64,000 bases of DNA from the NCBI GenBank assembly GCA_050084515.1, contig CM114271.1, positions 39,804,001 to 39,868,000 of the forward strand. The letters run 5' to 3'. The position numbers were made by a program, and so were the translations under genes. The notes below the pieces were generated by a model. That model searched no databases. It had not been told where the DNA came from and saw nothing but the letters and a program-made list of their open reading frames with translations. This stretch comes from Blasia pusilla. Its lineage: Eukaryota. Shown one piece after another: positions 9,079 to 44,259 of the stretch (the first letter of the stretch is position 1; the number at the start of each line of letters is the position of its first letter).

Positions 9079-10035
9079 ATGCCCTTCTGTGGCCACTGCT
9101 CTCAGGTCATCAGCTGTAGGACATGTGTTGAGTATCATCAACCTGTGTTTTCCGTTCCGAGGGAGAGAATCCAAGCGATTGATGCCTGCCTCGAGTGCAC
9201 AGAGGATTTGAAACGAAGCGTGCAGGAAAAGACAAAAAGCGTGGCGGATCTGAGAAGGACGGTGATTTGTCTCGAGGAGCAGCTTCACTTTTTGAGAAAG
9301 TTAGAGCCTAAACCGGGGAGTGAAAATTTTAAGGGAGACATCAGCTTTATAATAGAAGACAACAAAGCTGTACCCGAGGTTGTTCAGGCGCATCAGTTCG
9401 TATTGGTGAGCATTTCGGCTAGCTTCAGATTGCGTGAGGTTTTTTTGGTCAAAAGTTTGCAAGGAACGGAAGATAGAATTTAGAACTTTTGATTGTCTAC
9501 GGATATTGCTACTTCTGGCTTTAGCTTCCTAAGAATACGTTCTAGATGAAAACCTACCGCTCTCTCTATCGTGTTTATGGCAGATCAAACTGTAGCTTGG
9601 CAATTCTGCTTTGAATTTGATCATGACGCGGGTGCAGTTGTTGCTTGTTGGCAGGCCAGCAAATCCCCCCTGTTTCGTAATATTTTTGACCCTGGCATGC
9701 ACGAAAAACTGCCTGCAACCATACATGTCTACGACACGACAGCCCCGGTCCTTCGTGCGATGGTAAACTTCTGCTACACGGCAGAAATCACCTACAATCA
9801 TGAGGTGACACCTGAGAGAGTTTTACGAATTGCACATAAGTACGACATCCTTGAACTGAAGAATCATGCCGAAACGGTTCTCGTCCAGGGCATCAACCAG
9901 GACAACCTCGTTCATACGATAAGAATGGCTCATAAGCTGGAATCGACGGTCCTGAAAGAAGCAGCTATAGCGTATTTTGAAACTCACTTTTCAGACGTGA
10001 AAAACTTCGTTATTGACTCACTCGTTGGACGCTAA
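9079..10035 (+). CDS. BTB/POZ domain protein (~235 aa) with N-terminal Cys motifs and coiled coil; exons 9079-9405 and 9655-10035
   Basis: ATG 9079 (MPFCGHC..CRTC..CLEC), then GDISF..VQAHQFVL|ASKSPLFRNIF..LRAMVNFCYT..LRIAHKYDILELK typical of BTB; GT at 9406, CAG ending 9654, phase 0. Confidence 0.88.
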
Positions 10036-16712: not shown

Positions 16713-18127
16713 ATGGAGGTGCAGATCCCGCTGTGGTGCGCAGTTGCAGCGCTGCTGTTCGGCAGTGCGTGGGGTGTGCAGCTGCAGGTTGGGAGTTTGG
16801 GAGCCAAGTTCTCTCTGGGAGCCGCGGCGGACGGAAGTTCCGATAGCGACCAAGATGTCGACAAAAGGAGCAGCTCCGGTCACGTTGCTGGCGGGAAGAA
16901 GCCAACAGTCTTCTCCGGACAAGTGTTGTGCATGAGCTGCGATCATGTTTCCACTCCTATTTTCGGTCGGTCCTTCTACACTTTCTTGGGTCGATGCAAA
17001 AGCGCTAGAAACCACTCAATGCCTCGCAGGCTTCTCGTGAGAGGGAAGGCCATCGATAAAGCCTTTGGAATCCTCCGGTCCAGTCCACGAGGATTCCGAA
17101 GGCTTTCGCGATCCCTCCCATATGTGAGCATCTACGTCTGAGTCTACTCAAACACTTTTTCCTTTTTGAGTGCATTTCTTGGGGCTTTTCTCCAATCGCT
17201 CACTAGTCCAGTGGAATAGCCGAAGATCATAGCTGAATCTTCCACACTTCAGCTTCAGGGAAAAGGGCCTGTTTCTGACATGCTTCTCACGTGCAGCTGA
17301 GTGGGCATTCGTTCGAGTATGGTAAGTGCAGTGTGCTTACTTTGTGGAAGATCAGGGACTTTGCCTTTCTCGGTCCTTGTGTGGGAGTTTATGGAAAGCT
17401 CGTTCTGCTCATGTGCGCCTGAACTCTCCTGCACAGTTGCCATTTGGAATCAACCTTTACCTCAACTACTTACACTTGTGCCGCCTTATCTGTGCTCGTA
17501 GGGGTTGAGGCGAATCTTCTGTGTCCACACCCTCCGCCAGGGGGGGGAACTCCAAAGGTGCAAATTATATCATCCGGAATTACCGGCGAAGATGGCTCTT
17601 TCCACCTATCAGTAGGTGATTCCTCCGTCACATTGCTGAGCCGATGTTTCATGAAGCTCGCCAAAAGCTCATCTTCGAACTCCAACTGCAACATTCCGAC
17701 CCTCAGCGAAGACGGTTTTGCTCTGTCCAGCCGCTTAAAGATCACGGACTCGGACTCTCTGGACCGAAAATACTCCGTCTCCTTCGAATTCCACCCTGCT
17801 TCATGCTCGATTGGTAGGAAGTTCCTCCGAGACGAGAATGAAAATCCCGAGGGTAGACATACTGGCCACCATGGTCATCATCCGGGGTCTGGATTCCGTC
17901 CTGAAGAGGAAGAACCTCAACGTCAACTCCTAGGAACCGTCAAGGCGTCTGTCACCATTCCTCCCATCCCAGAAATTCCTCCCATTCCACAAATTCCTCC
18001 TATCCCACAAATTCCCTCCATTCCTCAAATCCCAGCTATCCCAAAAATCCCCCCGATTCCAGCCACCCCGTCGGAGTCTAGCAGCACTGCGAATCACGAG
18101 GACCACTCCACCGATTCCTCGCCTTGA
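16713..18127 (+). CDS. Secreted Pollen Ole e 1 allergen/extensin-family proline-rich protein (~292 aa); exons 16713-16965 and 17502-18127
   Basis: Signal peptide MEVQIPLWCAVAALLFGSAWG; GQVLCMSC..PIF|GVEANLLC..TGEDGSF..C.MKL..S....CNIP Ole e 1 Cys pattern; phase-1 GT-AG intron; C-terminal IPPIPQ repeats; TATA-like tatatatta near 16554. Confidence 0.85.
17957..18061 (+). repeat. Coding 18-bp tandem repeat (IPxIP[Q/E/K]) x ~6
   Basis: Translates as IPPIPE IPPIPQ IPPIPQ IPSIPQ IPAIPK IPPIP. Confidence 0.85.
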
Positions 18128-21100
18128 CCTAGACCTTTCAAGTCGAGTTGGAGGATTCGCTCTTCTCAGATCGCTTGAGCTACAGTCCACTCCCAGCGCC
18201 CGTCGCCACTAAAGCGTTTGAATTTGGAATATTAGGCATCTGTGGTCAGGAGATATATACAACGCAGGTTGATCACCGTCTCGAAACTCAAGTAGATGCT
18301 CAAGCTGCGTGGAATGTTTTCATATGGTAGGGCACGTCGGTAGCTGTACATCATACGTCTAACTTAAAAAATGTAAGTGTAACTACGATAACAATTAGCG
18401 TTTGGAATGAGAAACGAGCCCAGCGACAACAAGAATTGTCGCCTTTCAAGCAGAGTACTTGCACCCTCCTGTGTAAGCGCGCCCTGAATGAGCTCTGAAG
18501 AAAACTCCAAAGCAAGCCAGCCCGTAATCTCGTTGTGACAAAATTGTCTGCTCGGTGAAGAATTGTAATAAAGCATCGAGAATTGCAGATGCTGATTGTC
18601 CGTCCCGTGAGAGGTAGTCAAATCGCTGGTTCGCACCTCGATGAGTCGGTTACATTGCGTGCCAGCCCAACGGGTGTTCCAGAACTCGGAGAAAGGTCGC
18701 CGCTGGATCGAGCTCGGCATCTCGAACACGAACAGAATTATTCACGATGAGCGTCATTCGTACAAGGAAAACTTCACAGCATTCGAAAGGAATCTCCCAT
18801 TGCAACGGTTTGTGTTCAATTCCAGAGGAAGCCTGAATTTGATGAAAGATGCGAAACGGATTGTACTAATGAGGAAGAAATTCGAGTCGTGAGAAAATGT
18901 TCAATCATGACCAATTATTGTGAAGAATGGAGAAGTTGGAGAATGGGAATTGGATCGCGAAAGCGGATTGCTTCACTATGTATTGTGAACACATTGCAGT
19001 TGTTAAGACTAGTTTGAACTGTGCTTGCATTTTGCTACAATGTCATGCGCTCATATGCCGTCTCTACTCATTCCGTCGATTCTACCTCCAGGAAGATAGA
19101 CGATCCCTATTGGAATCATCAGAACCAGGAGAATGGAGAGATTCGTCGAGGAAACGTTCAAATGGCTCTGGGTTAGAATTCCTGGAATACTAACAGCCAA
19201 AATCAGCTCACTTGTCGACTACATGTAATTAACCGTAACCGGTTGAGACGCTGCACGGCCTTTCACATCGTATGTTCTCCTGGTAAAGTGCCTTTAATGC
19301 ATGAATGAGTGTAAGGTGCCCGTTTTGCTCTAGTTTCAAGTCCAAAAATCAAGGAAAAGCATGGGTGTATCCGAGAAAATTCCGTGTTACCTGCAAAGAG
19401 TACGCAATGTGGAGCAGCTGCGGTTCAACTCCATAGCTCTTTCATATCTTTCAGAGACTAATACAGACCCCTGCCTCTTCTCAATTAGGCTTCAGTAATC
19501 CATGGGCATTCTAGAAATGATTTATTCGGAACTAGGCTTGCACTCCATCGTAAGTCACAGAGTTGATGCGTAAGCCGAATCACAAATCAGAGTTTCTAAA
19601 CTTAGGTCCCAAATTGCCTGGACCAGTTCGGTTTGTGAACGAGACACGAGAGCGTTGCGGAAAAGCGTGAACTGGAAAAATAGGGAATGGATCCATTGCG
19701 ATGGATCCATGGGGTCAATCGCAGAAAAAATGAGTCAGAAAAGCGGCCACATATCAGAGTTACTGACACCGTGAAAAGTCTCCTCCCTGTAATGTGTCTT
19801 ACATGTTGATGAAAAAATCCAGAGGTGTGATAACTTTGATTAGCTAACACACGAATAGAGGCATAGATTGTTGAGCCTAACTAGAAGCTGTGCCTATGCT
19901 GTAATTATTTGGAACTCACTTCACCCTAGTTCGTATGGGACATGAGAGCTGCTTGGAGTAGCGCCTGTGAGACTATCTGATACAATCTCACTCTTGGAAA
20001 CACGCTGTTCCGAATGCATCCAAACTATTAAATAGAATAGCTCTCCTGGTTCATCGTGATGTGACGATTGGATCGCCAGGTCATGATATTTCGGCTCCTC
20101 TCCTGCTTCGTGTATGTGATCTCGTGAGCGGGCAGGATTAGCGTCAGAGGATACTGGAGCGGCCTGGGAGCGCCAGACAATCTGCAGATCAAGTACTTGG
20201 TGTGATCGGATCAAGTGAATGCACAAGGAATAACCTTTGGGACAGTTCCGATCGTGTGCAAGCGAGTGCCGGGGGAAAGGAACCATTATGAGCGAAAGCT
20301 CTGAGCACCCTCTTCTGGGAATTGTAGTCGGCAAAAATGGAGGTTGACAGAAACGAGTAATTTACTCGATTTATTCGGGCCTATACGGAGAAGGTTTCTC
20401 TAAGATAATCACCATCAGACATGGTAACCGAAAAATTCACAAGGTTGCTATAATGCGCAAATAGATCTTGAACGACTCGCGTTCAAGAAAACCGAGTACT
20501 GCAGTTGAAACGAAAGCAATTCTAGCGATCTGGCCTCTAATCCTCCTGTGGCCTTCTTGGTTGGAGCTATGGATTCTTGCCAGCACTTCAATATCGGAGA
20601 AATGTAAAATAAAAGTGGAAATATTTGTAGACCGGGAGGAAGACGATTTTCTTACAAGAGACCCATTTCTCGGGCATGAAGATGGGCACACTCAATAAGG
20701 AAAGGCTTCAATGACTAATGAGGTACAACGGAGGTGTAAAGCTGAATCCTAGAGTAGTCTACCTTTGCTCCTACCACCGATCTCCTTGAAATACCTCGCA
20801 TTGGCTCATGCATACGAAATACACAGCTTAATTTGGCTGATATGCCGTAGGCTTCCTATGTTATGTATATGCAATCGCGCATTGAATAGTGCCACTCTCT
20901 TCACATGGAAGTCACTCTCGGTCGTGAATGGTATCCTCTCATCCTACGACGTGCCAAATGCAAACCAAGAGAATCCAACCTCTCACAACACTCATAGTAT
21001 GTTGAAGGGACCACAAATGGTCGGGGAAGTGTAACCATCCTTTGTTACTAAAAGTCTATACCTTATAGCGCATGAGTGGGTACGAACCAACCAAAAATAA

Positions 21101-21538
21101 AAAAAGACATATAACATTTGATCAAGATGAGAGTGGACTAGTAGGTTGGTGAAAGGTAAGATACGAATGACGTAGATAATAGAAGAACACCAAAGTCCAA
21201 AGAAGATCCACTCAATCAAGGAGACCACGTGGGATAAGGATGGATAGAGCTATTTTTTCTTCATTCTATTTATCTCTAAGTATGTAAAGGAAGGCGAGGA
21301 AGGAAGAAGAGAGGCCTCGGAGGGTATTCTTCTTTTGTGCAATTCTACAGTGGTTTTATGAGTTTGAGATTTACGACGGTATCAGATAAAGGTTGCTCTT
21401 TCAATGAGAGTGGATTATCCTTTTTGGAAGAATAACCAAGTAATGATCTCATGTAATGAATTTCGAGAGGCTTGTTAGAGTCTAATATTGGCCATTAAGC
21501 TACAAGTAGAGTATGGAGGAAGGGTTGTTTTGCAAATA

Positions 21539-21754
21539 ATGGATGTAGGGGTAGTAAGAGTGACTCATAAATTTCCATTTCTAAAAATATTCGCCATCAA
21601 ACTCTTACATCTAGATAGACATTGGTTCACAAGATACCTCGTATATCATGGTGAAGCTTTCATCACACAAGTGATGGATTCTAGTTTCTTGACGATCCTT
21701 CCAATTGTTACATATGATTGTGTATGGGATTGCATTATTTATATCTTATTTTAA
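21539..21754 (+). CDS. Small ORF-A (71 aa) inside LTR, unknown function
   Basis: MDVGVVRV..DRHWFTRYLVYH..ILPIVTY..WDCIIYILF*; homologous start-to-stop to the ORF at 33632-33879. Confidence 0.55.
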   Translation: MDVGVVRVTHKFPFLKIFAIKLLHLDRHWFTRYLVYHGEAFITQVMDSSFLTILPIVTYDCVWDCIIYILF

Positions 21755-22888
21755 ACGAGATATGGGGGATGGACTTGGATAGGCTCCTATAAGTGTTTAT
21801 ACATACTCAATGTATAGTCAATACGGCTTCTCGATCCAAGGTAGCAAATAGAGAGTTGATATTTTATAAGACGTTTTTGGCCAAAAGTATTATGATGAGG
21901 TATTGCGTCTCCATTGCCTTTTGTAATCCTCGTTGTATGAAATGAGCAAATGTATATCTTGATGTTAAATTAGAGTGGTAGTTAAGGATCTAGAGAAAGC
22001 CACGTGGAGTGACGATGGAAGACATTTTGAGAGAGATGATTCATAAATTGAGAGGATTCAGAGTTGCATTTGACCAAAGTCAAAACCAAGTCCAAGAATT
22101 AGTATAACCACTTGCTTCGATAAAACGAGTGTGTATAACATAAAGAGTGGTGGATATGGATGTCCAAGCGTCATTGATATTGAAAATTGAATATGACAAA
22201 GGCATGTAAGGTAGAAGCATTCAAAGGAGATCAAGACATTTGGATATTAGAGGTTGGATCATTCATATGGAAATCCTCTTATCCCTTTTCAACATTGTTG
22301 ATCACATTATAGGAATTTTTACAAGATTGATATGGTATCAAGGATGGAAGAGATCTTTGATTGAAATGGATCGAAAAATCACGTGGAACTGGATGAAGCA
22401 AGGGCTAGTGCAAAATTTCCAAGATATGGATCTCATCCACATTAGTAGAATGAGCATTAGTAGTATTTATCATTGAAAATAATAATGATCATAAAAATTG
22501 GAGAAGAATAATAATCATGATAATCATAATGAAACTATGAAGATTAGAATAGAAAGGTAGTATCGATGACTACATCAAGGATTTTTGTGACTTACAAATA
22601 CAAATTCGTGACACGAGTAGGACAAAAGCCCTCAATCTATTCAAAATAGGCGTAAAGAGGAAGATGTGTCGAAAAGAAACTTGAGATAACCCCAAAAATA
22701 TCAATCAAGAAACAAGAAGAGATTGTTGCTTCCATGAGCAACCCATATGGATCCACAACCATGGAGTTTGATAACCTTTGAGCATGAGATGGTTACGCAC
22801 CACAAAGATTTAATGAAAGGATGTCAATGAAGAGAGATCGGAACTCTAATCTACAAGGGGTGGCTCCTAGAACCGACGGGGTTCTTAA

Positions 22889-23187
22889 CAAGGTTGCATG
22901 TGGACAAAGTTCATGTCCGTGGGTATGTCCATGTCCGTGAACTTATGTCTGTCCTATCGAAGGACTTGTCCGTATGGGCCCCATCCTTTCCCTACTTTCT
23001 TATTCCCCTTACTTGCCTTCGTGTTCCATACTCCCGAATTTCTTCCTCCCTCATTGCTCCGCTCATCCTTGTCTTGCCTTCCATCATGGACTAAAAGTAT
23101 GGGTCCCACCTCTTGGAACCCATGTCGGTGGACATGCCCATACTTGTCCGTCCTAAGGAAGAACTTGTCCGTTTTTTTGCAAAGATG
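22889..23187 (+). mobile_element. hAT-type MITE copy inserted in the Gypsy element
   Basis: Ends caaggttgca...tgcaaagatg; TSD gttcttaa/gttcttag; internal sequence matches 27621-27950. Confidence 0.85.
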
Positions 23188-26100
23188 GTTCTTAGAGGAG
23201 GGAGAGAATAAGAAGTCCAACGAGATATGTGCCAATATTTTGAGTGTGGAAGATGTAGTGATATAGACATGAATTTTCACTTTCATAGTCTAAAAAATAG
23301 GCCACATCCTCCTATTAATCATCTTGAAGGGGAAGACATGCATGAAGATGAAAAGAACCTGGACCTCATAAAAACGCCAACCACCAACAATCTCTTATCG
23401 CGGATTTTCTAGTTTTACAAAAGGAAGAAACAAAAAGAATCAACATAAATATATGGAGGTAAATGGTTCGGAGAGGGGAGAACCCCATCTCACTCTTGCA
23501 TCTCACTATCGTAGATGGGGAAGTAGAGGGATTCCAAGTTAGAGTATTGATTGATTGTAGTGCACAAAAAAATCCATAATAGTAACTTTCTTCTTGCTTT
23601 AGATAGGAATCAAATGAAGAGGTAGAATTTCCAAAAGGAAAATAGAAAGAATTGAGAAGCTTCCTCGAAGTATAGAGTTCACGATATGAAAGTATTATGA
23701 AGAGTTGGAGTTTAAGGTCATTTGATTAACACTTTATGATGCTATCTTAGGGATATCTTGAGTGGAATAGTACAATCTAGTACAATCCAAGGGTGGAATA
23801 TTTATGAAGATAGAGTTAGATCACGTCCAAGAATTGTATCCTTATATGTAATAGGAAAAACTGCCATCAAACATCAAAATGTGTGTTTTTCTTCTTTAAT
23901 AAGAGATGTTGGTGGTTTAAAAAAGTATTTAGAGGTAATAGACAAGTTGAGAGAAGTATTGAAGAAGTTCGAGGATGTATTCCAAGAAAACTCACCATCA
24001 AGGTTTCACCCCCAAACGAAGGCTACACCAAAATATTGATATCCCTCCAAGAAGCATGCAACCATATAAGGCTCCTTACTGTCGTGCTTGAATTGCAAGA
24101 ATGTGAGGCCCACGTGGAGAAGATGGTATAGAAAAACTTCATCCAACCAAGCATCTCGCCATATGGAGCCCAATTCTTTTTGTGTAAAAGAAGGATGGAA
24201 GCATGTGACTCTATATCGATTATAAACCATTGAATCAACACAGCCTGAGCCTCCATTGCGCTGTCTTAGGCCCAAAGCTGAGCTCTTGCAGTCTGTCACT
24301 TTAAGTATCTGCTTCTCATTTCAGAGAGATATACACGTTGTACTCTATGTAATAAATTGTCTCACAATTTTGAAATCCCTACATCTTTTTGGGACTTAGA
24401 CGTAATCATTTGCACGGTAGAGTCTCTCCATCCCACTACTACAATGAGTGGGATGGGATTGATACCAAAACTTGTTCCTATTTCAATCCCGATATTCTTA
24501 AATTTTATAAAGACTTTTAAAATCTAAATAGTCAAATGAAATGAATAGCTTAGCTTGGAAAGAAAAGTTGTTGATTAAAGAAACACCAAACAATACATGG
24601 TCACAATTGCTACCTTTGGTCTCCTAGAGCCATTTTTTTTATTATTACACGAACAAGAAATATTCAAATCAATCTTTTCGATCATATGGATACAAAAGAG
24701 GAAACTATTTTAGAAACATTATTAGTATTTCAACAACTTTTTGGTTTTATGTTTGAATCATACTCATATTTCTTGTTTTTGGTTGAACAAGCCAACGGAA
24801 GAAAGTGATCCATTAACAAACGTGGTTGATTATTTTTTAGCGCAATGTCTATCGTCATAATCATTTTACACTCTAGTTTTTAATATGAAAGAGAGGTTAT
24901 GATCTAATAGGGCTACTTAGTCAACAAAGCATATCCAAGTAACGGGGTCCCTACTTTCACAATCAAGGTCGTAGGCTTGATGGGCAGGGTTTGGTTGCTT
25001 ACTTTATGGCAAAAAGCTTTCTTGATATATAAAACACCAAGTTCTATAAAACCAAAGAAATCTCCGGATCTTTCCTTCTCAACCATTTCAGCAAAGGAAA
25101 TCGTAAAGCCAAAGAAGCACTACATGCCTCTAAAGGCAAAGATGGGAGCAAAAAGAGAAAATTCTTTGCATGTTTTTAGCACTCCCTTGGCAAGGATCCA
25201 AGGGAAAAGCACCTAAACCCTTGTGGTGTTTGACAAAACAAAGTCCCTCGGCAAGGACCCCTTTTTTTTTTCAATGGTAAAATAGTGTCCAAGAAAAAAG
25301 GGCTAAAAACTTTTGGTCTAAAATTTGACCAGATCATAGCCTCTAAGGTCTTAGCTCTATGCCTTCTTTTGACAAGAAAGTGCAATCCTCTGTAATTTCA
25401 CAATAAAAATTTAGAGCATAGTCTACGAAAAAATTTTTTTTTTTTTTTCAAAAATAGATCTTGTTCTTACAAAAATATTCAAGCTCACGGATAAGGGCCA
25501 TAGACAAAAGAAAGTATATATTTTACGACCAAATAAAAATATTTTAGTTTTTGGCAAATAACGGGATTCCAACCCATGCTTTCATATCCACAATCTACAA
25601 CTTTAACCCCTAAGTTATATCTTTTTTTATTTTTAAATAAGATACTTGCTATCATATTCGAACGGATATTCCGTTAGAATTTGAGTTTGCCGCATTTGAA
25701 ATTTCACCAAGTGAGTCTTGGGTTTTGTTAGGAATATATTGAAAATTTGTACTAGTTGTGCAACTCCTTTTTGCATTACTCGGAGACCCTTGATGAAATT
25801 CACCTTATGCTTTCAGAGACTCACTTATCGATGAGACTTCAAGGCTAAGGACCTCAGACCAAAATAACTAAGCCAATCTACACGTTAGGAGGTATGTACA
25901 CCTCTTTTATATGTTGCATAAACCTATCAAGCATGTAAGATTTAGGTGCTTTAGCCAAAACTAATGCTTGTTTACCTATAACCTTGTTATTACAATGTTT
26001 TCGTTTGCAAGAATATCTCTATTAGATGGATTTTGTAGCAAAAATTTTTTTTTCCGCTTTAGGCTTATGGGGCCCACTTACTATCCTTCATACGAGTAGT

Positions 26101-26339
26101 AACTTACTAGCGTTATCACTTGGTTTTATTGTATATGCTTTATGAAAATAATGTATTTTGAGCCCCACCCTCACCCCAACCTAGCTTAGCCGGACCCTAG
26201 GCCCTCTGAGCCCGTAATGTAGAAACGGGCTCGTGTTGCCTCCACCCATTTTGTAGCCCACATGAAACCCGCGCGTAGCATGCGGCAAGCCCACAGGGCC
26301 GACCGGGCCCTCATTCACCATGAACTATAAGTGTGAACT

Positions 26340-26400
26340 ATGAACCTTTTGCAATTCATGTCCAAACTTCTCCGTCCATGTCCATTTTTGTGCAACCATG
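26340..26400 (+). mobile_element. 3' end fragment of the same MITE family
   Basis: tccaaactt..ccgtccatgtcc..tttttgtgcaaccatg matches the 3' end of the 27621 copy; no 5' end found. Confidence 0.55.
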
Positions 26401-27620
26401 TTATTGGCGCTGTTGGAAAATATCCACATATTGGATTGCATACTTGGTTTCCCGATGCAATCAAATGCTTTTTCAATATTTGAGGGCTCTCATGTGCCAT
26501 TAGTTACATTCCAAAAATCTCACTAGATGCTGGAATCTAAATGAGAGTCCCTATCACGGAAAAATATCTCATTTTGACCAATCAGTAGGAAATCTATCAG
26601 GGTCAAATCCACTCGGCAAAGTCAAGGCCAAAGGAGCTCTCTAGGATCTCTGTACGTAAGACCTCTTGTTCAAAATGGAATCTCTCCCAAACTCAATGGC
26701 ACGAAGGGTATGAAGAGCAGTAAGGGAGGCCTGGAGGTAGGGGATTTTTTTTGTTTGATACCGCCCTACACTGTCAACAAGAAAAGAAATAAAAAATAAC
26801 AGGTAAATATTGACCAAAGAAAGGGCAGAAACTTCTAAAGTTTTGGAAAAATCTAGATTTTTCGCATAAATTATTTTCATGTATGAAAGAAAAACCGCCT
26901 TATTTTAAGGTGGGGGATATAGAAGAATAGGAGGAAAATTATAAGAATGCAAGAAATGAAAAACGCTTCACTAAAAACTTGTAGCATCCACATGTGCAAA
27001 GATGCAAATGAAAGAAAATAGAGAGGCCCAAGTGCATGAGGGATGCCTTTTTAGCCTTTTGAGTTGGTTTACAAGTCAAGTGCAAGTCTTGAGCAAGTCT
27101 CTTGTGAGTCTGACATGCAACTATTGTGCAAGTTGGGTGCAAGTTTTGGCATTCATATGCCTCGAAAAGTCTTATTAGAGTGACTTCAAAGACCCTCAAG
27201 ACTTTGCGACTCTTAAAATCTGCATAGTGACTAATTTGCGACTGGCAAGACTTGCAATAAAAGTTGCAAATTGTGGTTTTTAAGATTCTAAGACTCGTAA
27301 TTTAGTCATAATTGTGTGAGTGGTTAGAGACACTATGGAAAATTTTTCAGGTTGTTTGCAAGTAAGGGAAGCCACATACTACTCATAGTGGATCCACGAC
27401 TCCACAAAGACGACAAATAGACGCTATGGGACAATAACTTATATCTCAAATATCTCCCATTGAGTGCTTCTTAGCTTTCTATTTTCTACTGATGTCATGA
27501 CCAAAGAGGAAAGCGTATGCACAATACATGCCTCTAGTATATGCCCCAAGTATCAAAGGATGATTGCATATATACACGATAGGATAGGTTGGAAATTCAT
27601 CCTCGGACACAAAATTTGAT

Positions 27621-27950
27621 CAAGGTTGCATGTGGACAAAGTCCGTGTCCGCGGACATATCCATGTCCGTGGACTTATGTCCATCCTATGGAAGGACTTG
27701 TTCTTATGGGCCCCACCTTTCCCTTCTTTCTCATTCTCCTTACTTGCCTTCGTGTTCCATACTCCCCCATTTCTTCCTCCCTCCGCCTCCACTCTCCCCT
27801 CCCTCATTGCTCCTCTCATCCTTGCCTTGACTTCCATCATGGACTAAAAGTGTGGGTCCCATCTTTTGGAACCCATGTCCGTGGATATATCCAAACTTGT
27901 CCTTCCATGTCCGTCCTTAGGAAGGATTGGTCCGTTTTTGTGCAACCATG
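27621..27950 (+). mobile_element. hAT-type MITE (330 bp)
   Basis: TIRs caaggttgca/tgcaaccatg; perfect 8-bp TSD aatttgat on both sides. Confidence 0.92.
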
Positions 27951-28228
27951 AATTTGATGCAAGCATAAAGGACGACATGGATGGATACTTGTTCCGTGAG
28001 ACTATCAAATGGGTTCTTCGATCCATGCCAACACCACCACCACCCCTTGAGATTGAGGTTGACCACCAATCTTGAGCTCTTGAGCATCTAATGTCGGCCT
28101 TTGATCACCTGATCCCATAGTAAAGGTACACAACCTCGATTCTAGATGCGAAAGGATATTGTACACACCCTGCCCAACAAAGATGGCTTTGTGTTGTTGG
28201 ATGTCTATTTATTATGTTGTGTAGGACG

Positions 28229-28780
28229 AGATACGATTCGTTCAAGTTTGTGGTAATGCCTTTCGGTCTATTTAATGCGCCTCTGACGTTCACCACTTTG
28301 ATAAACTCCATCTTTCATAAGGACACAGATGAGTATGTGATCATCTACATAGATGACAAACTCATCTATTGAAAAACACTAGAGGAGAACACTCAACATT
28401 TGAAGACTATGTTTGAGAAACTCAAGGCAAACAAGTTGTATGCAAATGCCGACTAGAGTGAGTTCGGTTTGACAAAGATCAAGATCTTGGGGCATGTGGT
28501 TAGTGCAGATGGAGTGAGTCCAAACATGGAAGAGATAAGGGCAATTTCGAATGGGAACCGCCTTCCACTGTGAAGGGGATGAGGAGGCTCATCAGAGCGG
28601 TCCAATTTTACTAGACATACGTGAAGAACTTTTCGAGAATAGTGAAACCTCTCACAGATTGGACCACCAAGTTTCCAAACAGGAAATGGACCGAGGAAGT
28701 GAAGAAGGAGTTCAACTTTCGCAGGAACTAGTTTTGAAGCCGCCGGAGTTCGACCAACCGTTTGGAGGTGTACCATGGAG
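28229..28780 (+). pseudogene. Ty3/Gypsy reverse transcriptase fragment
   Basis: RYDSFKFVVMPFGLFNAPLTFTTLINSIFH..YVIIYIDDKLIY*K..LGHVVSADGV with in-frame stops. Confidence 0.9.
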
Positions 28781-29492
28781 GAATGTCCACTAACAAGATA
28801 TTGACAATGATCTTGTATGTGGCAGTGACATATATAGCCAACTACATTTGGTTTTCTAGTCTGACCGATAACAACCTTGAGGAGAACATTACATGGGACT
28901 ATGTGGAGGGCTGAAATGAGCGGTTTGGTCCGCAATTGGTTTTTTTGCATTCCACCATCGCCACCAAAACCATATAGATAGGCGAGGAGAAATTGCTTTA
29001 GCTATGAATACCCTAAAAACTCAAAATACCCATTCATCATAAATTTATAAGAAAACACACCTATTCCTTCATGTTTGTTTGCGAGTATTTTTTTATATTT
29101 TTCATTTGAGTGTTCCAAGTTCTAACTACAAAGCTTGTTTAATATGTATATTATAACCTATGTGCAAAGGGCTCCCCCTTCTCAAAGGCATTACAAGTTA
29201 GAGCGCATGTTTATGGCAAAGGATTTCCTTTTGCTATCTTTAGAGAATGAGTTGGTGGTTGAGTGGATGATTGGTGATTTGCCTATGTCTCCATCAATAT
29301 GAGATATGGGAGGCCATAAGCATAACAAGGGATCCATGGATGATGATGGTGGATTATAGCACGATAATGCGTGCTTGCATGAGTGCGTCGTAGATGTCCT
29401 TAATCGCTTCTATGACGATGGCATGGAAGAATTATGCATGAATATTTTAACTATGAACTGATGCACTATGAGAGCATTTTAATGAGGATATG

Positions 29493-29960
29493 CAAGTTCA
29501 ATTATATGATCTTATTCAAACATCTCACATGGTAGCTAGATTGCTTCTTCTCAACTTACAAGAGCATTTTTTTGTTTCAAAGGTATCCATCGACTTGAAG
29601 TTAGGCCTAATGCATAACTCATTGCAACCCAATCCTTGCTACAAACGCTCATAGTAATCGATTATGCAACCAACTCTGAATTAGCCACTCCACAACTATT
29701 GAGCCAAAATCCAACAGGATAATTCAACAAGGTCAAACATATATGCCCTTACAACCAGTTTCTATTTCATAGACATGGGTCATCCTTCAAGTTTTTCTCA
29801 TATTTTTGGGCCATACGATAAGGAGATGATATCCAAGGCGATGACTCATGAAAGATTCTTCGTAGATTTTCTATCATTCCATGATAGTTGCACATATATA
29901 GAGTTTCAGGATTGGAAGAGTTGATGGTATGGCATATAGGCCAAAATTCAATAGATGGTG
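29493..29960 (+). pseudogene. CACTA/EnSpm transposase (TnpD) N-terminal fragment
   Basis: LYD..S....LLLLNLQ..F.VS..SID..L.LMH..L.PN and KILRRFSIIP**LHIYR....LMVWH, matching the typical KVLR.FP.IPRL...M.WH motif. Confidence 0.65.
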
Positions 29961-30359
29961 CATGCGGAAGGAGCTTATAACATACAACAAAGGGCGGGCC
30001 CTACTGGAAAAGTCACCCTCAACAGAGTAACCCCCAACCCTATGTATGAAACCGCATCCCTACCTAGACACTACGGCCCTACATAAGGTATGGCCTCTAC
30101 TAGCACACTATACTCTACGACATAATCCGTATGGTCATGACAGTTGTCGTCATACAACATGCATCGCTGACATACTATACTCACATACATACATAACAAA
30201 GACGAGACCATACACAAACACAAGTGTACCACAACTCGCCCCCCTAACTGGCGGTTAGGTCCCTCTAACTTCCAAGAAGCCCTATACATCTACTACATGC
30301 TATACACCTTCGTGGGTGCAGGAATCAGAAGGCCGGGTGCAAGCACGTGCCTGATGAAC

Positions 30360-32008
30360 CTGGAGATGTCGTAACACACGCAATATCTCCCAAAAAATCG
30401 AGACCTAGGGTCGTGTAATCCCTTACTACGACCAGCACGTGTATAATCCTGACATGGCCATCCAACAATCACCAAATCCACAAGACCAACCCTCTCAAGG
30501 TCCTACGCCCCCAAAAATGCAATGTGTGACGACAAAGCACGCTGGTACCCACGAATTGCTGATGGCGGCAACAACTCAAGAAATCTCCGCATCAACTGCC
30601 CAATATGTCGGGATGAGACTCTCTGGGCCGTCTCATCTCGCTCCACATACACGTATCTCCGCACAAGAATACCGGCGTGCAACACTGCAGCCAAACCAGT
30701 GCTAATCCCACCAAAGAGATCTAACACACAAATGCCTTCCGACGGATACAACCATACAATGGGTGTAGTATCCAAGGGGATAACCCAACTGGACCAGAAG
30801 TAGGAGTCCGCAGTGGAGGTTCCTCTTCCTCGTGAGGTATAACAACCTCACACCAAAGCCTCTTGCATTAGGCGATCAGCCTCCTGCCATAGTGCACCGC
30901 CTGAACTCCAAAGTGGCACATCCAACGATGAGGATACCACTGCTGCAAAACTAGGGACCTCCTCTACCTCTTCATGCACAGGAGAATCCATAGCAGAAAG
31001 GTTACCCTCCAAAAAGTCTCATGGCCAAGTGACTACTCCACTAAAACTAGCCAGAGATGCTAACACTGTTGGGGACGACCCTCTTGGTCGAGCCCCATAA
31101 ATAAATCTCATAGGAACCTGGCTCATACGTCCATCCCCAGACTGCCAACCAGTTCTATAAGATGTTGTTTCAGTCCAGAAGTCCATCTGAAAACCCATCG
31201 GGTACAATACTGCTCCTCCAACTATTACATCATACGACTCGGCCAATGTGACCACTGCAAATACTCCCAACCTGGAGCTATCAGTCGCATGATCTGGTCT
31301 CAACTGTACATACAACTTCCCCGATGGCATGAAATGAGACCTATCATTGGCTCCTCCAAGCGATGTCTGAATCTGGAATGGGCAAGGCTCAAGCTCTGAC
31401 CTCCGACTACCCAAACCAATACATGTTGTCTTTCCCAACATCAAAGGTTGGGCACCAGAGTCTAACAAGACTCTATCTGGTCTACACACCTGTCTTGTAT
31501 GACTCACCAATCGAAATATCCCACTCTGGTTGTCCAACATATAAACACCAGGTGTAAGCCTCTCACGATCAATGGTTGGCCGGGCAGGTAATGCATCCAT
31601 CTTCGCCGCTGCTGCCTGCCAAGTAGCATTGGTACTCAATGCTACACCTGACATAGAGGGTTGCTCCACTGTAACACCCTCATCCATCTCAACATGTGTA
31701 GCAGTAACACTCTCACGTTCACACAACGTGGGTGCTAGCTGAAATACATGAGCTAAGTCAACTCCTAAGGCCATCAACTCAGTGGCTGAAAGCAATGGGG
31801 ATCCCAACACTGAAGTTGTCATCCGCAATACTGCACTGGATGCTGCATCCATGTCTACTACATGCGATATAGATGCCTCAGTCCCTACTGTAGGCTCAAT
31901 AGACTGCGTAGGAACCATAGATGGAGTCCTAAGCACCTCTGACAACAAGAATGATTGGGGAAGCCTATCCTGCCTCCCAGCCTCATCCCTCTGTGGATCC
32001 AACTCCAC
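30360..32008 (-). pseudogene. Polyprotein remnant: retropepsin-like protease followed by C5-cytosine methyltransferase motifs I-IV
   Basis: VLLDSGAQPLMLG...YDVIVG protease; VLDLFGGISTG (motif I), YVYVERD (motif II), DLVIVGWPCQDYTRAG..GLHDPRSRFF (motif IV, catalytic PC). Listed ORFs 31019-32008, 30503-30775 and 30293-30481 share one frame, broken by stops. Confidence 0.85.
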
Positions 32009-33631
32009 AATAGCACCACGTGGCTATGACGCTCGAGTGGCTCCTCTCGTAACTGCAGTCGTTGCCTCAACCTGTGCTGCACTCGCCATATAAGAGAGAT
32101 CATCCCCTCCATAAGAGGTGGAAGCCCATGCATAAGAGCTAAAAATCAGACAAACTTGCTGTCCATACAACTCTAGAATCGCAAATCCGACAGCGCTTCC
32201 GCCCAGATTCATGCACATAGAAATCTGCAACACTCTTTCACCACAACAGCAATCTGCTCCATACACTCAAGTAGATAGCTTCACATGAGATCACAATAGA
32301 GGTAGCAATAGGAACCTCCAACCTACAGAGCTTCCGTACTCCAAGCTCTCCACATCAGAAAACTGTCGAACACGAGTCAGAATCTTCAATCTTTGATAAC
32401 TTCCAACTCCCTGGACGAAATCCAGCGATCTAAAGTGTGTTTGAAAGCTCTGAGCAAGGCGCTTCTTTCCCAACCAACCACGCACCAGATACACACCTCC
32501 AACATAGGCCACAAGCCACGAACATCCACGGCTGAGTAAACAATCAGCCCTAACCAGATCCTACTGATCTACGATCGAAGCTACCATCGATCTACTATAG
32601 TTCTTTGAGTGAAATCCGTGAAAGACCTTATGTCATAAACCATGTATAGAATCACATACAATCGAGCCACACCCACTCCAGGATGGGAGAATCCAGGTCG
32701 AAGCTTGGGGGAACCACCATAGCCAAGAGCTCTTCTCACTACCAAGGCTAACTTCCAACGCACCGGCTCAACTCAAAGAACTAACGATTCTTTGAGTACA
32801 CTCCACACTATATCCTCCAACTTAAGGGCGGGCCCTATTGGAAAAGTCACCCTCAACAGTGTCGTATAGTAAAATCAGCCAGTGGGTAAATTCTTTCCTC
32901 GTTCAGTGTTCAATAGATTTTTATTAGTATTAAGAAAATTAGCTTAGGAAAAGGAAATTCCCATATTTAAACCTCTTTACGGTGCCTCTTTTATGCGGGC
33001 CCAACTTTAGGAAAAAAGGTAATAAATAAAAAATGAATTTATAAAAGTAAAGTAATAAAAGATGACTTTATAAAGGTTGGTGCTTTAATGAAAAGCAAAA
33101 GTAGGCTTGGTTGGTAGCTAGGTTAGTTGGGGTAATTTGGAAAATATCAAGTGGGTAAAAGAGGATATTTTGGAAGAGATAAGAGGAAATCTAATTGTGT
33201 CAAAATATGATTGGCTGAGCAATGAGAGGAAGCCATGTAGCACAAAATAAGATTAGCTCTATTTCGTACTCTTGTGGATCTCTTGTGAGTATATAAAGAG
33301 GCGGGACCTTCAAGGGTTCATCATCTTCTATTACACATCTTGAGTCTCTTGTGTGACTCTTGAGTATATGGTTTTGGGATTGCTTGCTCTTCCAATGAGA
33401 GTGGATCACCCCTCTTGGGAGAGTAACTTGATCATGGTCTATTCTTCAAGAGGTTTTTAGAGTGTGGTGTGTGTGTGGAAATGAGAGGTTTGTCATCTTA
33501 GAGGAGTTTAGTCATACTAAAATAGTGAATGTTTTGGCTTGTTCCTTTCCCAATGAGAGTGGATAACCCTTCTTGGGAGAATAATTCCTCCCAAACCCAT
33601 TCTTGAGGAGAGTAGAGAATGTCTATCAAGC

Positions 33632-33879
33632 ATGGATAGGGGTGGAGCACGAGTTGTGCCCGACTTTTCTTTCCTCAATCCATACCATGTCAAGACACTC
33701 TTTGTAGATAGGCATTGGTTCACTCGCTATTTAGTTTATCACTTTAGAGAGGCGTTCATGAACCAAGTCATTCAATCTCCAACTCCGGTCATCCTTCCTA
33801 TTGTCACATGTGGAAGGACATGGGATTTATCGTCACATATGGAAGGACATGGGATTGTACTTTGTATGTCCTTATATAG
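33632..33879 (+). pseudogene. Small ORF-A in solo LTR (72 aa once a 29-bp tandem duplication is removed)
   Basis: Duplicated gtcacat(g/a)tggaaggacatgggatt at 33803 and 33832; the repaired frame ends WDCTLYVLI* at the same position as the 21539 copy. Confidence 0.55.
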
Positions 33880-33885
33880 CAATCC

Positions 33886-34146
33886 ATGGACGTCAATAGG
33901 CCTACTCAAGTAGGGTTTAACACTAGTTGTGCTATCTTCCTCGTGAACAAGCGTAAAGTAGTTTATAGGGATTTTATGGTTAGGAATTTTGGGGTCCGAT
34001 GTTACCAAGAAGTGATCGCCTTGGCACTTCTATTTGTGATATCTGTCGTGAGACAATGGAGAGTATACAAAAGAATGAATTTTTTATTGAAAAAGGAGAA
34101 CTTCTTAGAGGGTTCACCTTGCATTGACCACGTCTGCCGCAGCTAG
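33886..34146 (+). CDS. Small ORF-B (86 aa) in solo LTR, unknown function
   Basis: MDVNRPTQV..TSC..KVVYRD..FGVRCYQEV; a disrupted homolog MDLDRLL*V..TQC..KVANRE..FGQKYYDEV starts at 21769. Confidence 0.45.
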   Translation: MDVNRPTQVGFNTSCAIFLVNKRKVVYRDFMVRNFGVRCYQEVIALALLFVISVVRQWRVYKRMNFLLKKENFLEGSPCIDHVCRS

Positions 34147-34849
34147 AAGATATGCCCTTACTCGAAGAAAGGCTCTCAACACGACAAGGGAATAACCCCC
34201 AACCCTATGTATGAAACCGCATCCCTACCTAGACACTACGACCCTACATAAGGTATGGCCTCTACTAGCACATTATAATCTACGATATAATCCATATGGT
34301 CATGACATAGTGCCTCTCTTTCACTTTGGCTTTTCAAAAAAAATTTGTCAAGAGAGAGGGAGATCAAATATTTTAAAGGCTTCCTCTATGTTGTTATGTT
34401 GAAAGCCTTTTTTTTACTCTATTCACTAGAGGTTTTATGACTTGCTCTATGTCTTTTGACTTCTATGCAGAGTGCCAATCCAAATGCCAAGTAGTGACTA
34501 GAGGTGTCATTGCCATCATCACACAAGGTGCAAGAGTTGGTGCCGAGCTTTCCAATGCCAACCAGGAATCTCTAGTGCTAACCATCTACTCTACGTGATT
34601 AGGACCTCCAATAAATATTATTGTTCTCCATTACAACAACTTTGGGAAATAAATCAATAGTACTGAATGTGAAGAAAATTCCTTCTAGTGTGACCAACTT
34701 AGCAATATCAATATATGCTCTTGCTTTGCTTGTTGTGAATTTTATGCAGGAGACCAAGTGATGACTAGAGCTTCCAACCTTAGTTAGAGAGAGAGATTGT
34801 ACGCATTAAGTAGTGCCTTATGCTGCCTTGAGACCATAGACCATAATAT

Positions 34850-35635
34850 AGATTAGCAATCGGTGGTCTATTTGGGAGGTGACACAAAACAACCTATTCA
34901 AGGAACTTAGCCAGTGAGCATCAAGCTACTGAATGGAGTACAAACTGCCATATGTCTTGTATGTCGGCCGACTCAAGAAGAATCTGATCTCAGTAGATCG
35001 ATTTGATCAAGCGGGAGCACATGCGACAGTCAAAATTGTTGTTGTATCGTGGAACACAAAAGTGTTAGAATGAGAGACTGTACTCATTAAATAGTGGCTT
35101 ATGTTGCCTTGAGACTATAGACCCTTGCGCTATGATGTTGCACAAGACATTACGTACCAGTGGAGTAGCTTTGGGCTTACCTAATGTGTGGAACAATTAT
35201 GGTGTGAGCAACCTAGCAATATCATCATATGCTTTTGCTTTGTGTGTTGTGAATCTCTTTACAACATAATACATCTTACCTAATTGGAATGCCCTAAAGG
35301 AGTTACTCACAAATGTAGCAGCTTTGGGCTCTAAATTGTGGCTTTAGAATGTGTTGAATAGCTTTGGTGGTACGAGCTGAGCAATCTGTATGGGTGGTAA
35401 TCAAAGATTAAATCAAGGAAGAGGAAGCTATAGTTGTCCACATAGAGAGTTAGAATGGATATAGGAGCCACTCAACACGTGGCTCACCACCTCAACACAT
35501 TTAACAATTTTCAAGCTAGTAATACACATCAACAATCAGTGGTATATTTGGGAGATGACACAAAACAACCTATCCAAGGAACTCAGTTAGTAAGCATCAA
35601 GCTACTGAATGGAGTACAAACTGTCATCCCAGATG
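34850..35635 (+). pseudogene. Ty1/Copia protease-region fragments, locally duplicated
   Basis: MDIGATQHV..VYLGDDTKQPIQG and YVGRLKKNLISV; ~34856-34950 is repeated at ~35535-35627. Confidence 0.7.
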
Positions 35636-35639
35636 CTAG

Positions 35640-38060
35640 AGTCATCATTGTAAATCCTCTTCATGAGTCTATGCCTAAATTGGCCATCTGTGTTACTACC
35701 ACCTGTAACAAGTTCACTATAGAGTGGATGAGACAACATTAGGTACAGTTGAAAGCAATGTGGGATGAGTATTGTTGAGTTGATGTCGAGCCTTTAGTGG
35801 GACATGCCAGTGATTGGGATGCCCGTAGTAGAAAACTAATGATGGAGGATTTTAGGGGTGTTAACTCTACTATATCTAGGTACAACGTAGGGTGGGAAGG
35901 ATGGCACTATTCTATCTCTATTCTTCCTAATGGTGATCTCTATGGCTTTGGAGACCATGATACACCTCACAATGGGAAGAAAGCAATTAATCCATTGGAT
36001 AGATGCTCAGCTACTTGTGTCCTTGGAGATCAACATCCGTCTCTGTCATATGTGACAAATGTCTATAACCACTACAAAATTCATGACCATGGCTTGAAGT
36101 GGGATGATGTGAATAGGACTAACATGCAAAATTGGGCTGGGTTGAATTGCTTCAAAGAGAGTGCAAGCTTGTTTGCAAGATATGTTTGAAAGAATGGATG
36201 TTGGTCATGACAGAAGCCTAGGGACCCAACTATACTTAGAGTTTGTGGTGATTACATTGATATTTTTTTCTCACGTAAGCATGACTTGAGGAGTCGTGTA
36301 GTTTTGGAATCTAAAGTGTCATGGTTCTTTCGACTCTGGAGACTTTGGCTGAGACATGGTGATCATTCTGTGATAGAGAGTGTAGGATTTACGAAAGATA
36401 AGAACATGATATCAGTGCAAGCTTTCCATGATATCAACGTGTCTTGCAATTTTTTTTGTATTACTAATGTGTGCATTTTGTGACAAGAATCCATACTAGC
36501 AAGTTCCGTTTCACCTCCTAGGATCTAATTGTTGTGAGATCTTCTTCAGCAAGGTAGGTGGAATGAGCGGCCATGAACGCAACTATGATTTTGGGTCTTT
36601 GTTGGATAGTGGAGTGGGATTGAATAGATTGGTTGGCTTGGAATTTGGACCAGAAGGATTAAACATTGGCTGGTCTCACCCAAAGCAAGATCATGTGTGG
36701 GGAACTCTCCATCCGTTAGGTGTAGGGGAAGATGCTCCCAACCTATTTGACTATTCATTGATTCATACTAATGAGCCGGTAGTTGATGCCCTTAAAGCCA
36801 AATCAATATTGACCACGTTGAATATGTCTTGTAGATCCTCTTTGCCTACAAGTCTGAGGCGATGGTGGTTGCATCCAGGGAATGTGGAGGCAGAGACGTG
36901 GCTTGATTTAGCTATTATAAATGCGGCAGGTACATGTGATGACTCTGCGGATTTCATAGAACACAAACCAATAATAGCATGGTTGCACAAAAATGGTCAA
37001 GTCCTTCCTTAGGATGGGCATGGACGGACAAGTTTGGACATGTCCACGAACATGGGTTCCAATATTTGGGACCCTCACCATGATGGAAGGCAAGGCAAGG
37101 ATGAGAGTAGCAATGAGGGAGGGAGGAGGGAGGGAAGGTGGAGGGAGGAAGAAATGGGGGAGTATGGAACACAAAGGCAAGTAAGGGGAATGAGAAAGAA
37201 GGGAAAGGTGGGGCCCATAAGGACAAGTCCATCCATAGGACAGACATAAGTCCACGGACTTTGTCCACATGCAATCTTCAATAGTAAGCCCTCAACCATT
37301 CGAGGACTCTTCTGATGAAACAGAAGTTGATGATCCAATGTCGAGGGATTTTCAATAGTCTTGATGCATGGGAAAGTGATGCACCGGCCTCTATTGAGTC
37401 CAAAGTGATTGGTGAAGACTTGGATGAGGATGCAGATTACAATCCATCCATAGAGACAGATATATTGGGACATGTTGTAAGGCATGTATTCAGTTCAATT
37501 TTGCAAGAGTGCACACATAGAGTTCCTCGTCGAGTTATGCCTACTGTGATATTTGAGAGTAAAACATACTACAAATGTACTTTGGTGAGTGATTGGGCTT
37601 GCAATCCTTTCATTTCTAAACATAGGCTAATACATATGACACATAAAACATAGTACACTATAGGTAAGGTAAAAGAACCAACTAATCCAAATTTTCGACT
37701 TGTTATGTTCACATTGGAAGTGATATAGCTATTTTTTTAGTCTACTACAAAAGTTGGCCTTTCTTCCATATCATGTGAGTCAAATAAGAGAAAACAAAAA
37801 GAGTTGGATGAGAACACAGTAGTCCCTACAAAGGAATTTTGGTTAGGTTGTATTCTATTCGTCATACATAAATATGGTAGTCAATCGGAAAGATGTAGTC
37901 TTGTAGATCTCCTATTGATCTTTTGGACCGGCCTGTCCCAAAAGATGGGCAGACATACAGTGTCTGTCAAATATTGTGCAATTGGTATCGGCGCTGAGGT
38001 AAGAGCAATACCTTGTTCACATATGATGTATGTGATGGCCAATATATTGATATTGAAATG
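35640..38060 (+). pseudogene. Decayed DDE transposase, P-element/THAP9-like, interrupted by a MITE
   Basis: GHASDWDARSRKLM, DTPHNGKKAINPL, DDVNRTNMQNW, FFRLWRLWL, FHLLGSNCCEIFFSKVGG; order resembles P-type SD / D.PH..K..RN / QD.LE.FF..R..GG motifs. Superfamily call is inference. Confidence 0.55.
36978..37279 (-). mobile_element. hAT-type MITE copy, reverse orientation
   Basis: catggttgca...tgcaatcttc; degenerate TSD aataatag/aatagtaa; reverse complement of the 27621 copy. Confidence 0.85.
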
Positions 38061-43946: not shown

Positions 43947-44259
43947 CAAAGTTGCATGTGGACAAAATCCGTATCCACGGAAATGTCCATATTCATAGAC
44001 TTACGTCCGCCCTATGGAAGGACTTATCCATGTGGGCCCCATCTCCCCCTTCGTTCTCATCCCTCCCTTCTCAAACTTGTTACTTGCCTCCTCTTTTCCG
44101 TTCTTCCTCCCCCCTTATTTTGACACCTTCCCTTGCCCAGATTGCCTTACCTTCCACCATGAACTCTAAATGTGGGTCTCACCTCTTGCAATCCATATCT
44201 GTGGACATATCCAAACTTGGTCGTCTTAGCGATGGACTTGTTGGTTTTTTGCAATCATG
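43947..44259 (+). mobile_element. hAT-type MITE copy
   Basis: caaagttgca...tgcaatcatg; perfect TSD atattgag. Confidence 0.88.

Follow-up and report, generated by a model that had tools for sequence, protein, structure and literature searches.

A candidate 71-codon gene inside the long terminal repeats of a plant retrotransposon lineage

Introduction

Can the long terminal repeat (LTR) of a plant retrotransposon carry a protein-coding gene of its own? LTRs are treated as non-coding promoter/terminator modules and are masked by annotation pipelines. The question is raised by a locus on contig CM114271.1 of Blasia pusilla (GCA_050084515.1), within a stretch of 64,000 nucleotides (positions 39,804,001 to 39,868,000 of the forward strand; hereafter the window, whose first letter is position 1 of all coordinates below). 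A first-pass annotation made from these letters described a solo LTR with two tandem small reading frames, ORF-A and ORF-B, found a relative of ORF-A in a diverged LTR of the same window, and proposed that both frames encode microproteins under purifying selection. Here we analyse the two LTRs, their reading frames and transcripts, and the relatives of ORF-A in protein databases.

Results and Discussion

The LTR Holding Both Frames

The unit at 32860-34186 on the forward strand (E1) had been taken for a solo LTR, and its ends, the repeat that it splits, the read joints, and its copy number support this. Its termini have the form 5′-TG...CA-3′ with a short inverted repeat (TGTCG...CGACA). The flanks on both sides of E1 (32809-32862 and 34190-34307) are contiguous at 29976-30142 (+), an uninterrupted paralogue of the target site, with 87% and 95% identity; given that they adjoin there, E1 is a solo unit, inserted with no internal region attached.

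One DNA run and three RNA runs with the same species label were mapped on positions 32600-34450, and reads at least 85% alike were counted. The DNA depth was about 6000 (2 × 3000) over E1, whereas the single-copy flank at 34336-34450 had a depth of 3.4-5.7. From this ratio the E1 family has about 1000 copies, as an order of magnitude. Uninterrupted copies of the target were also seen in the DNA reads: in 1169 of them (576 + 593) position 32857 was followed by four letters, mostly TGAG, and then by 34193, and in 356 (179 + 177) it was followed directly by 34189. Each of the two forms lacks 1331 nt relative to the window, a difference that agrees with an LTR of 1326-1327 nt together with a target duplication of 4-5 bp. 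The two copies of the target duplication at E1 agree at only about three of five positions, as in an old insertion.

The consensus of the loose read ends in the 30 nt before 32860 finishes with the letters GGAGGGGGTGAA, a polypurine-type tract. The agreement with this consensus was 0.93-0.99 in the RNA runs (72, 140, and 91 reads) and 0.52 in the DNA run (1369 reads), the latter being the value that a 3′ position of roughly half of the LTRs would produce. Downstream of 34187, the DNA consensus reached an agreement of only 0.41 (1215 reads) and had no TGG start, and neither E1 nor the second LTR described below (E2) was followed by a recognisable tRNA-type primer binding site. E1 behaves, then, as a solo LTR, with the primer binding site as the one defining feature for which no match was seen.

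The copy of E1 in the window is decayed and frame-broken. It differs from the family majority at no fewer than 225 places; the commonest changes are A-for-G and T-for-C in the window copy (at least 47 each), an excess that is expected of an old methylated copy.

ORF-A and Its Intact Counterpart

ORF-A starts at 33632, as had been annotated, and reads MDRGGARV...DRHWFTRYLVYH...PIVTCGRTWD. Its original frame runs for 65 codons, up to WD, at 33632-33826 (+), and is broken by the 29-bp tandem duplication already noted in the first-pass annotation, which we locate at 33799-33856 (+; 2.0 copies, 93% matches). The DNA depth dips to about 1900 in the bin 33778-33839, against 3900-4800 in the adjoining bins. 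The tail of the protein, VTYGRTWDCTLYVLI with the stop codon TAG, follows in the shifted frame at 33832-33879 (+). The relative in the diverged LTR is intact: ORF-A′, inside E2 at 21539-21754 (+), has 71 codons and ends in TAA.

In both families the AUG of ORF-A is flanked by A at -3 and G at +4. The predicted products of the ORF-A type have about 8.5 kDa, a pI of about 7-8, and a hydrophobic composition, with GRAVY values of +0.75 for the product of E2 and +0.33 for the database homologue P0005 described below. In an AlphaFold model, residues 27-46 formed a helix, and a hairpin came after it; the pLDDT of the model was 45, a low confidence, and the model was kept out of the fold search. It was also observed that ORF-A′ (21539), ORF-B (33886), and the first ATG behind E2 (22156) all begin with ATGGA(T/C)GT (M-D-V), a coincidence that is possibly due to chance.

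The Element behind E2

E2 is a distantly related LTR at 21043-22140 (+), with the limits given in the first-pass annotation. [quoted passage not shown] ORF-A′ lies about 390 nt before the end of E2, and gag-like frames begin about 180 nt behind it. On the same strand we recognised what we take to be gag-like frames (22210-22681), a protease of the D-S-G type (23463-23576), and the start of a reverse transcriptase (23740-24036). Pfam was silent on these frames at 22210-24036, which are short pieces; the gag/pol remains of E2 consist of pieces of 36-125 codons. Further downstream, at 28124-28369 (+), there is an RVT_1 fragment (Pfam E 8.2e-07, 29.4 bits versus a cut-off of 29.6) whose best solved relatives are the Ty3 reverse transcriptase 4ol8_A (E 0.0012) and the Ty3 Gag-Pol structure 7q5b_A (E 0.005). 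No integrase was located behind E2.

The first-pass annotation had spoken of Ty3/Gypsy elements, and the RVT_1 fragment agrees with that. The element to which E2 belonged, probably as the 5′ LTR, would thus be a decayed one of Ty3 type. The Ty3/gypsy assignment would hold at least for E2, from whose downstream sequence it is drawn, and not from E1's own family. The string TGGTATCA at 22333, which we presume to be a primer-binding-site motif, was considered as the primer binding site of this element and rejected, as it is 193 nt away from the LTR end and falls within the gag-like frame.

Coding Signal in ORF-A

The length of the open frame is unremarkable, frames of at least 71 codons having appeared in 326 of 2000 shuffles of E2. 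Since open length alone proves nothing, the evidence for ORF-A comes from the comparison of the two copies. By BLASTP, 36 of 65 residues are identical between ORF-A and ORF-A′ (55%, E 5e-22), and tblastn against the window gave E 6e-18; with blastn, no DNA match over ORF-A was obtained between E1 and E2. When the two LTRs were forced into a MAFFT alignment, the identity was 0.58-0.74 over ORF-A against a background of about 0.45-0.5, and the leader motif (0.73) and ORF-A were the only islands that exceeded this background.

Sixty-four codon pairs could be compared, with 17 identical, 19 differing only synonymously, and 28 non-synonymously; the differences at codon positions 1, 2, and 3 number 22/18/36. 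By NG86, dN was 0.40 and dS was 2.05, the latter being saturated. The seven synonymous codon differences previously listed across DRHWFTRYLVYH are exactly as given there, and the coding-type pattern deduced from them holds over all 64 comparable codons. The frame of ORF-A has 36 of 64 identical residues and zero stops, compared with 18-24 identical residues of 63-64 in the five other frames, all of which contain stops (1-8 per sequence). In 20000 column shuffles the number of identical residues had a mean of 21.2 (sd 2.7) and a maximum of 31, and none reached 36.

These comparisons suggest that ORF-A is under purifying selection on its protein, either now or over most of the time since the two lineages separated. 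The coding signal is carried by three sequences only: ORF-A, ORF-A′, and P0005.

Promoter, Leader, and Transcripts

A TATATAAA box, identified by its sequence at 33290-33297 (+), lies upstream of both ORFs. It has weak homology to positions 21279-21300 of E2 (score 21, versus a shuffle mean of 14.5 and a maximum of 22). The RNA depth is minimal in the bin that holds this box (33282-33343) and maximal at 33592-33653, over the start of ORF-A; pile-ups of RNA molecule starts are seen at 33301 and at 33332, and one of molecule ends at 33342. We read this as a U3 that extends to about 33300, a short R with approximate limits, and a U5 that is long (about 850 nt) and contains ORF-A. The transition from U3 through R to U5 takes place within about 40 nt downstream of the TATATAAA box.

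In the stranded RNA, throughout the length of E1, the first mate was on the minus strand in 7-200 reads per bin versus 0-13 on the opposite one. Assuming the usual convention for stranded libraries, the RNA of the E1 family is of the plus strand, sense to the TATA box, to the direction from polypurine tract to LTR, and to ORF-A. Only one of 2992 RNA reads was at least 99% like the window copy, most of them being 90-95% alike or less, so that the RNA comes from other members of the family. The earlier suggestion that the frames, being downstream of the TATA-like box, could be expressed even from solo LTRs is therefore sustained as regards their position and the sense transcription, and not as regards the window copy, with its broken frame and its single read.

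Seven AUGs precede ORF-A in E1 and six in E2, with frames of 1-30 codons, and most of them are in poor context (lacking G at +4 or having a pyrimidine at -3). The LTRs show no depletion of AUGs (28 observed, versus 28.2 and 24.9 expected), and from ORF-A to the end of the LTR there are about 11 more in E2 and 6 in E1.

The leader motif is present, by sequence match, at 33393-33418 and 33551-33576 in E1, where it is duplicated, and at 21402-21427 in E2, always on the plus strand. Its pattern, CAATGAGAGTGGAT.A.CC.T.TTGG, has these 3 matches in the window for 0 expected. It is conserved at nucleotide level between LTRs that are otherwise unalignable, and its own small frames change mostly non-synonymously. 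RNAalifold folded it into a hairpin of 18 pairs, 7 of which are kept through a one-sided change, with zero compensatory double changes. A scan of metagenome contigs for the DNA of the leader motif gave 0 matches.

Relatives of ORF-A in Databases

A HMMER scan of 1.84 billion representative proteins produced two matches, P0005 and P0004. P0005, from a contig of 951 bp, has exactly 71 residues and 44% identity (E 2.5e-06 in that scan); against the E1 copy it is 40% identical, with a pairwise E of 6e-14, and it has the same C-terminus, PIVTYGPTWDCTIFILY. The three homologues have 19 invariant residues and keep start, stop, and length (71/72/71 codons). Taking into account that three lineages agree in these features, we take ORF-A as a real gene.

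P0004 was rejected as a homologue: it is a tandem-repeat protein of 365 residues, and its E-value is inflated by the repetition. The match covers residues 26-53 of ORF-A, with 32% identity in each of 5 repeats. The protein consists of about five tandem units of 77 residues, and its source is assembly contigs of up to 731 kb. Between the unit NQHWWTKFKLHH...QISSTILTI and the core of ORF-A, DRHWFTRYLVYH...QVMDSSFLTI, 9 of 28 residues are identical. P0004 could have arisen as a satellite from a leader of this type, or the resemblance could be due to chance.

A word-based protein search with the single sequence found zero relatives; with a profile it found, at near lengths, only P0005, and 0 relatives among 94 candidates when the profile was compared with longer proteins. 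Peptide-pattern scans gave 120 matches in metagenome contigs, 37 in viral contigs, and 35 in prokaryote-genome contigs, of which 0 were confirmed. The ESM Atlas gave no usable match for P0003 or P0005. Among the profile searches that had been proposed as a check, Pfam returned 0 families for ORF-A and for ORF-B, and the PDB returned 0 matches; for ORF-A′ there was one weak Pfam match, SH3_YKFC_2nd (E 0.11). No host or transposon protein resembling ORF-A was found among the 1.84 billion representatives.

ORF-B

ORF-B is present as described, with 86 codons at 33886-34146 (+), 6 nt past the stop of the ORF-A tail, and it is open in this copy only. By tblastn it has no counterpart in E2 (best E 1.4), where the ATG that matches its start (21769) runs into a stop after 7 codons. 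The reads of the family show frame-changing indels: a single-base deletion at 34077 is carried by 958 of 1285 DNA reads and by 19/19, 41/42, and 42/42 reads of the three RNA runs, and a four-base deletion at 34074 by 273 of 1525 reads. When 1 or 4 bases are taken out of the window sequence, the resulting frame stops three codons on. Deletions of 3 bases relative to the window occur as well, at 34070 (440 of 1533 reads) and at 34073 (486 of 1527). Frames of at least 86 codons arose in 206 of 2000 shuffles of E1.

ORF-B is probably a chance frame of one copy. As a second conserved microprotein it is unsupported, given the lack of a counterpart in E2 and the indels in most copies, so the proposed purifying selection on both frames is retained for ORF-A and abandoned for ORF-B. 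The idea of a toxin/antidote pair made of the two frames loses its support together with ORF-B.

Interpretation and Rival Explanations

Considering the evidence above, we judge it likely that ORF-A is a genuine gene of about 71 codons in the U5/5′ leader of a plant LTR retrotransposon lineage, kept by selection. Its amino-acid sequence would have been retained while the remaining LTR diverged past alignment. The RNA would begin just past the TATA box and carry several short upstream AUGs; scanning ribosomes would leak past those in poor context, or reinitiate, and then start at the AUG of ORF-A, and few of them would continue to gag once the 71 codons are read. ORF-A and gag would share one transcript, judging by the position of ORF-A′ in E2. 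The product would be hydrophobic, have a mass of about 8.5 kDa, and contain a predicted helix and then a hairpin, and the role that we prefer is that of a family-specific accessory factor which would act in trans on the element's own life cycle. A trans-acting protein is preferred because conservation extends over most of the length of ORF-A. Since ORF-A sits in the LTR, solo LTRs could also make this product. Anti-silencing and similar roles are speculation. A more specific version, according to which the lineage is of Ty3/gypsy type, the U5 gene is expressed in sense from about a thousand LTRs, solo ones included, and the 71-residue protein acts in trans on element RNA or against silencing, is put forward only tentatively.

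A serious rival, which we nevertheless consider rather unlikely, is that ORF-A is a cis-acting conserved-peptide uORF whose nascent peptide stalls the ribosome at or near the stop codon, none of it acting once released; the stall would set the output of Gag or divert genomic RNA from translation to packaging. It stays serious because in the three homologues conservation reaches the stop codon, and because ORF-A is situated in the leader, about 390 nt short of the LTR end, with gag-like frames starting about 180 nt behind that end in E2. The constant length (71/72/71 codons), the strong context of the AUG, and the absence of a recognisable fold or family would also suit it, as would the C-terminal pattern of conservation, which is typical of plant conserved-peptide uORFs. 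Against it, the conservation between E1 and E2 peaks in the middle of the protein (DRHWFTRYLVYH) and not only at the C-terminus. Moreover, 71 codons are long for such an ORF, and the AUGs that follow (about 11 in E2 and 6 in E1) make a control of gag through simple reinitiation implausible.

Both LTRs stand in old, decayed contexts, E1 with its 225 or more differences and broken frame and E2 with its fragmented gag/pol, and the open length is insignificant by shuffling (326 of 2000). It could be argued from this that ORF-A is a fossil, functional only in an ancestor or as a captured fragment, and in neutral decay in all present copies. This is improbable, as the signal between the lineages needs selection during most of their separation (dS about 2), a third lineage (P0005) has the same start, stop, and length, and the E1 family is still transcribed; neither did any resembling host or transposon protein appear among the 1.84 billion representatives. 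Least probable, and disfavoured, is a function of the nucleic acid itself, for example as an enhancer or as a signal for packaging or dimerisation, in which the open frame would be incidental. Retroelement leaders are dense in cis signals, and the nearby leader motif, of 26-44 nt, is conserved in just that manner, as nucleotides and with mostly non-synonymous change in its own frames. In ORF-A, however, third codon positions hold 36 of the 76 differences, 19 codons differ only synonymously (including CGC/AGA and TTA/CTC), and the remaining five frames are interrupted by stops and show less identity.

Comparison with Known Systems

Plant Ty3/gypsy elements contain additional ORFs (aORFs), such as the env-like genes of Athila/Bagy2, gene23 of Grande, and those of RIRE2 and Retand, which are lineage-specific, conserved over copies or families, and devoid of database homologues and of an assigned function; those treated in the review PMC7264820 all lie in the internal region, either ahead of gag or in the space from pol to the 3′ LTR, some in sense and others in antisense orientation, and none is situated in an LTR. 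ORF-A is like an aORF in being an extra ORF besides gag-pol that is conserved over families, and unlike one in having 71 codons and in lying within the LTR (U5) instead of the internal region. Plant aORFs, to which ORF1 of Ogre may be added, are much longer than ORF-A. Being within the LTR, ORF-A comes twice per element and is also found in solo LTRs. We regard it as an additional retrotransposon ORF in a new position.

Within the literature searched, which leaves most subscription journals outside, no conserved protein-coding ORF was found reported in the LTR of a plant retrotransposon, and in that literature the sag gene of MMTV was the sole LTR-internal gene met. Like ORF-A, sag is a protein-coding ORF in an LTR. 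It belongs to a vertebrate retrovirus, its product is a membrane glycoprotein of about 320 residues, and its place is U3, a different part of the LTR; it has no sequence relation with ORF-A.

The leaders of the pararetroviruses CaMV and RTBV have short ORFs and are crossed by shunting (PMC5902531). The leader ORFs of these viruses and of Rous sarcoma virus, as well as conserved-peptide uORFs, resemble ORF-A in that they precede a main ORF in an AUG-rich leader, and the conserved-peptide uORFs share with it the selection on amino-acid sequence. Retroviral and pararetroviral leader ORFs have from a few to about 30 codons, and it is their position that matters and not their sequence. To our knowledge, conserved-peptide uORFs are known from host genes and not from retrotransposon LTRs. 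ORF0 of LINE-1 is also a small ORF in the promoter/5′ UTR of a retrotransposon with many copies; it is antisense and primate-specific and belongs to a non-LTR element.

If ORF-A is what we propose, a gene in U5 would be a new location among the accessory genes of plant retrotransposons, and solo LTRs would be a distributed source of transposon protein and not inert remnants. Being short and having a clear start, ORF-A may also offer a handle on the translation of the long AUG-rich leaders of plant retrotransposons.

Genomic Setting

The window is plant nuclear DNA in which host genes are found together with nested transposon remains. Pfam scans, carried out with single open frames as queries, detected host-type domains at 9550-10032 (BTB), 17423-18124 (Pollen_Ole_e_1), and 54350-55486 (response regulator and histidine-kinase ATPase). 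The host repeat that E1 interrupts (32600-32857 and 34193-34307) itself has about 1000 copies, and on either side of E1 the RNA reads of the stranded runs have the direction opposite to that over E1. In this repeat, position 34274 was joined back to 32656 by 3, 7, and 5 reads of the three RNA runs and by 0 DNA reads at a depth of about 5000x. In LTR-free copies such a back-joint would correspond to a circular or back-spliced product of about 284 nt, unless it is an artefact of reverse transcription. Rfam reported no ribozyme in the region 20500-35000, the host repeat flanking E1 included; its only results there were a mir-1827 match and a tRNA-like match below threshold, the latter at 25556-25622 (-) with a score of 28 versus a gathering score of 29. 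ARAGORN called zero tRNAs across the window.

An open frame of 333 codons at 31019-32020 (-) contains LLDSGA and, later, an ...IVGG...M.F motif, and is presumably retropepsin-like; it had zero Pfam matches even up to E 1. This frame may belong to an element of the minus strand that was split by E1. A dispersed repeat of about 300 bp was also found at 22889-23182, 27621-27945, 43947-44254, and, inverted, 36983-37259, with copies that are 70-87% identical; two of these copies interrupt the decayed Ty3-type element behind E2.
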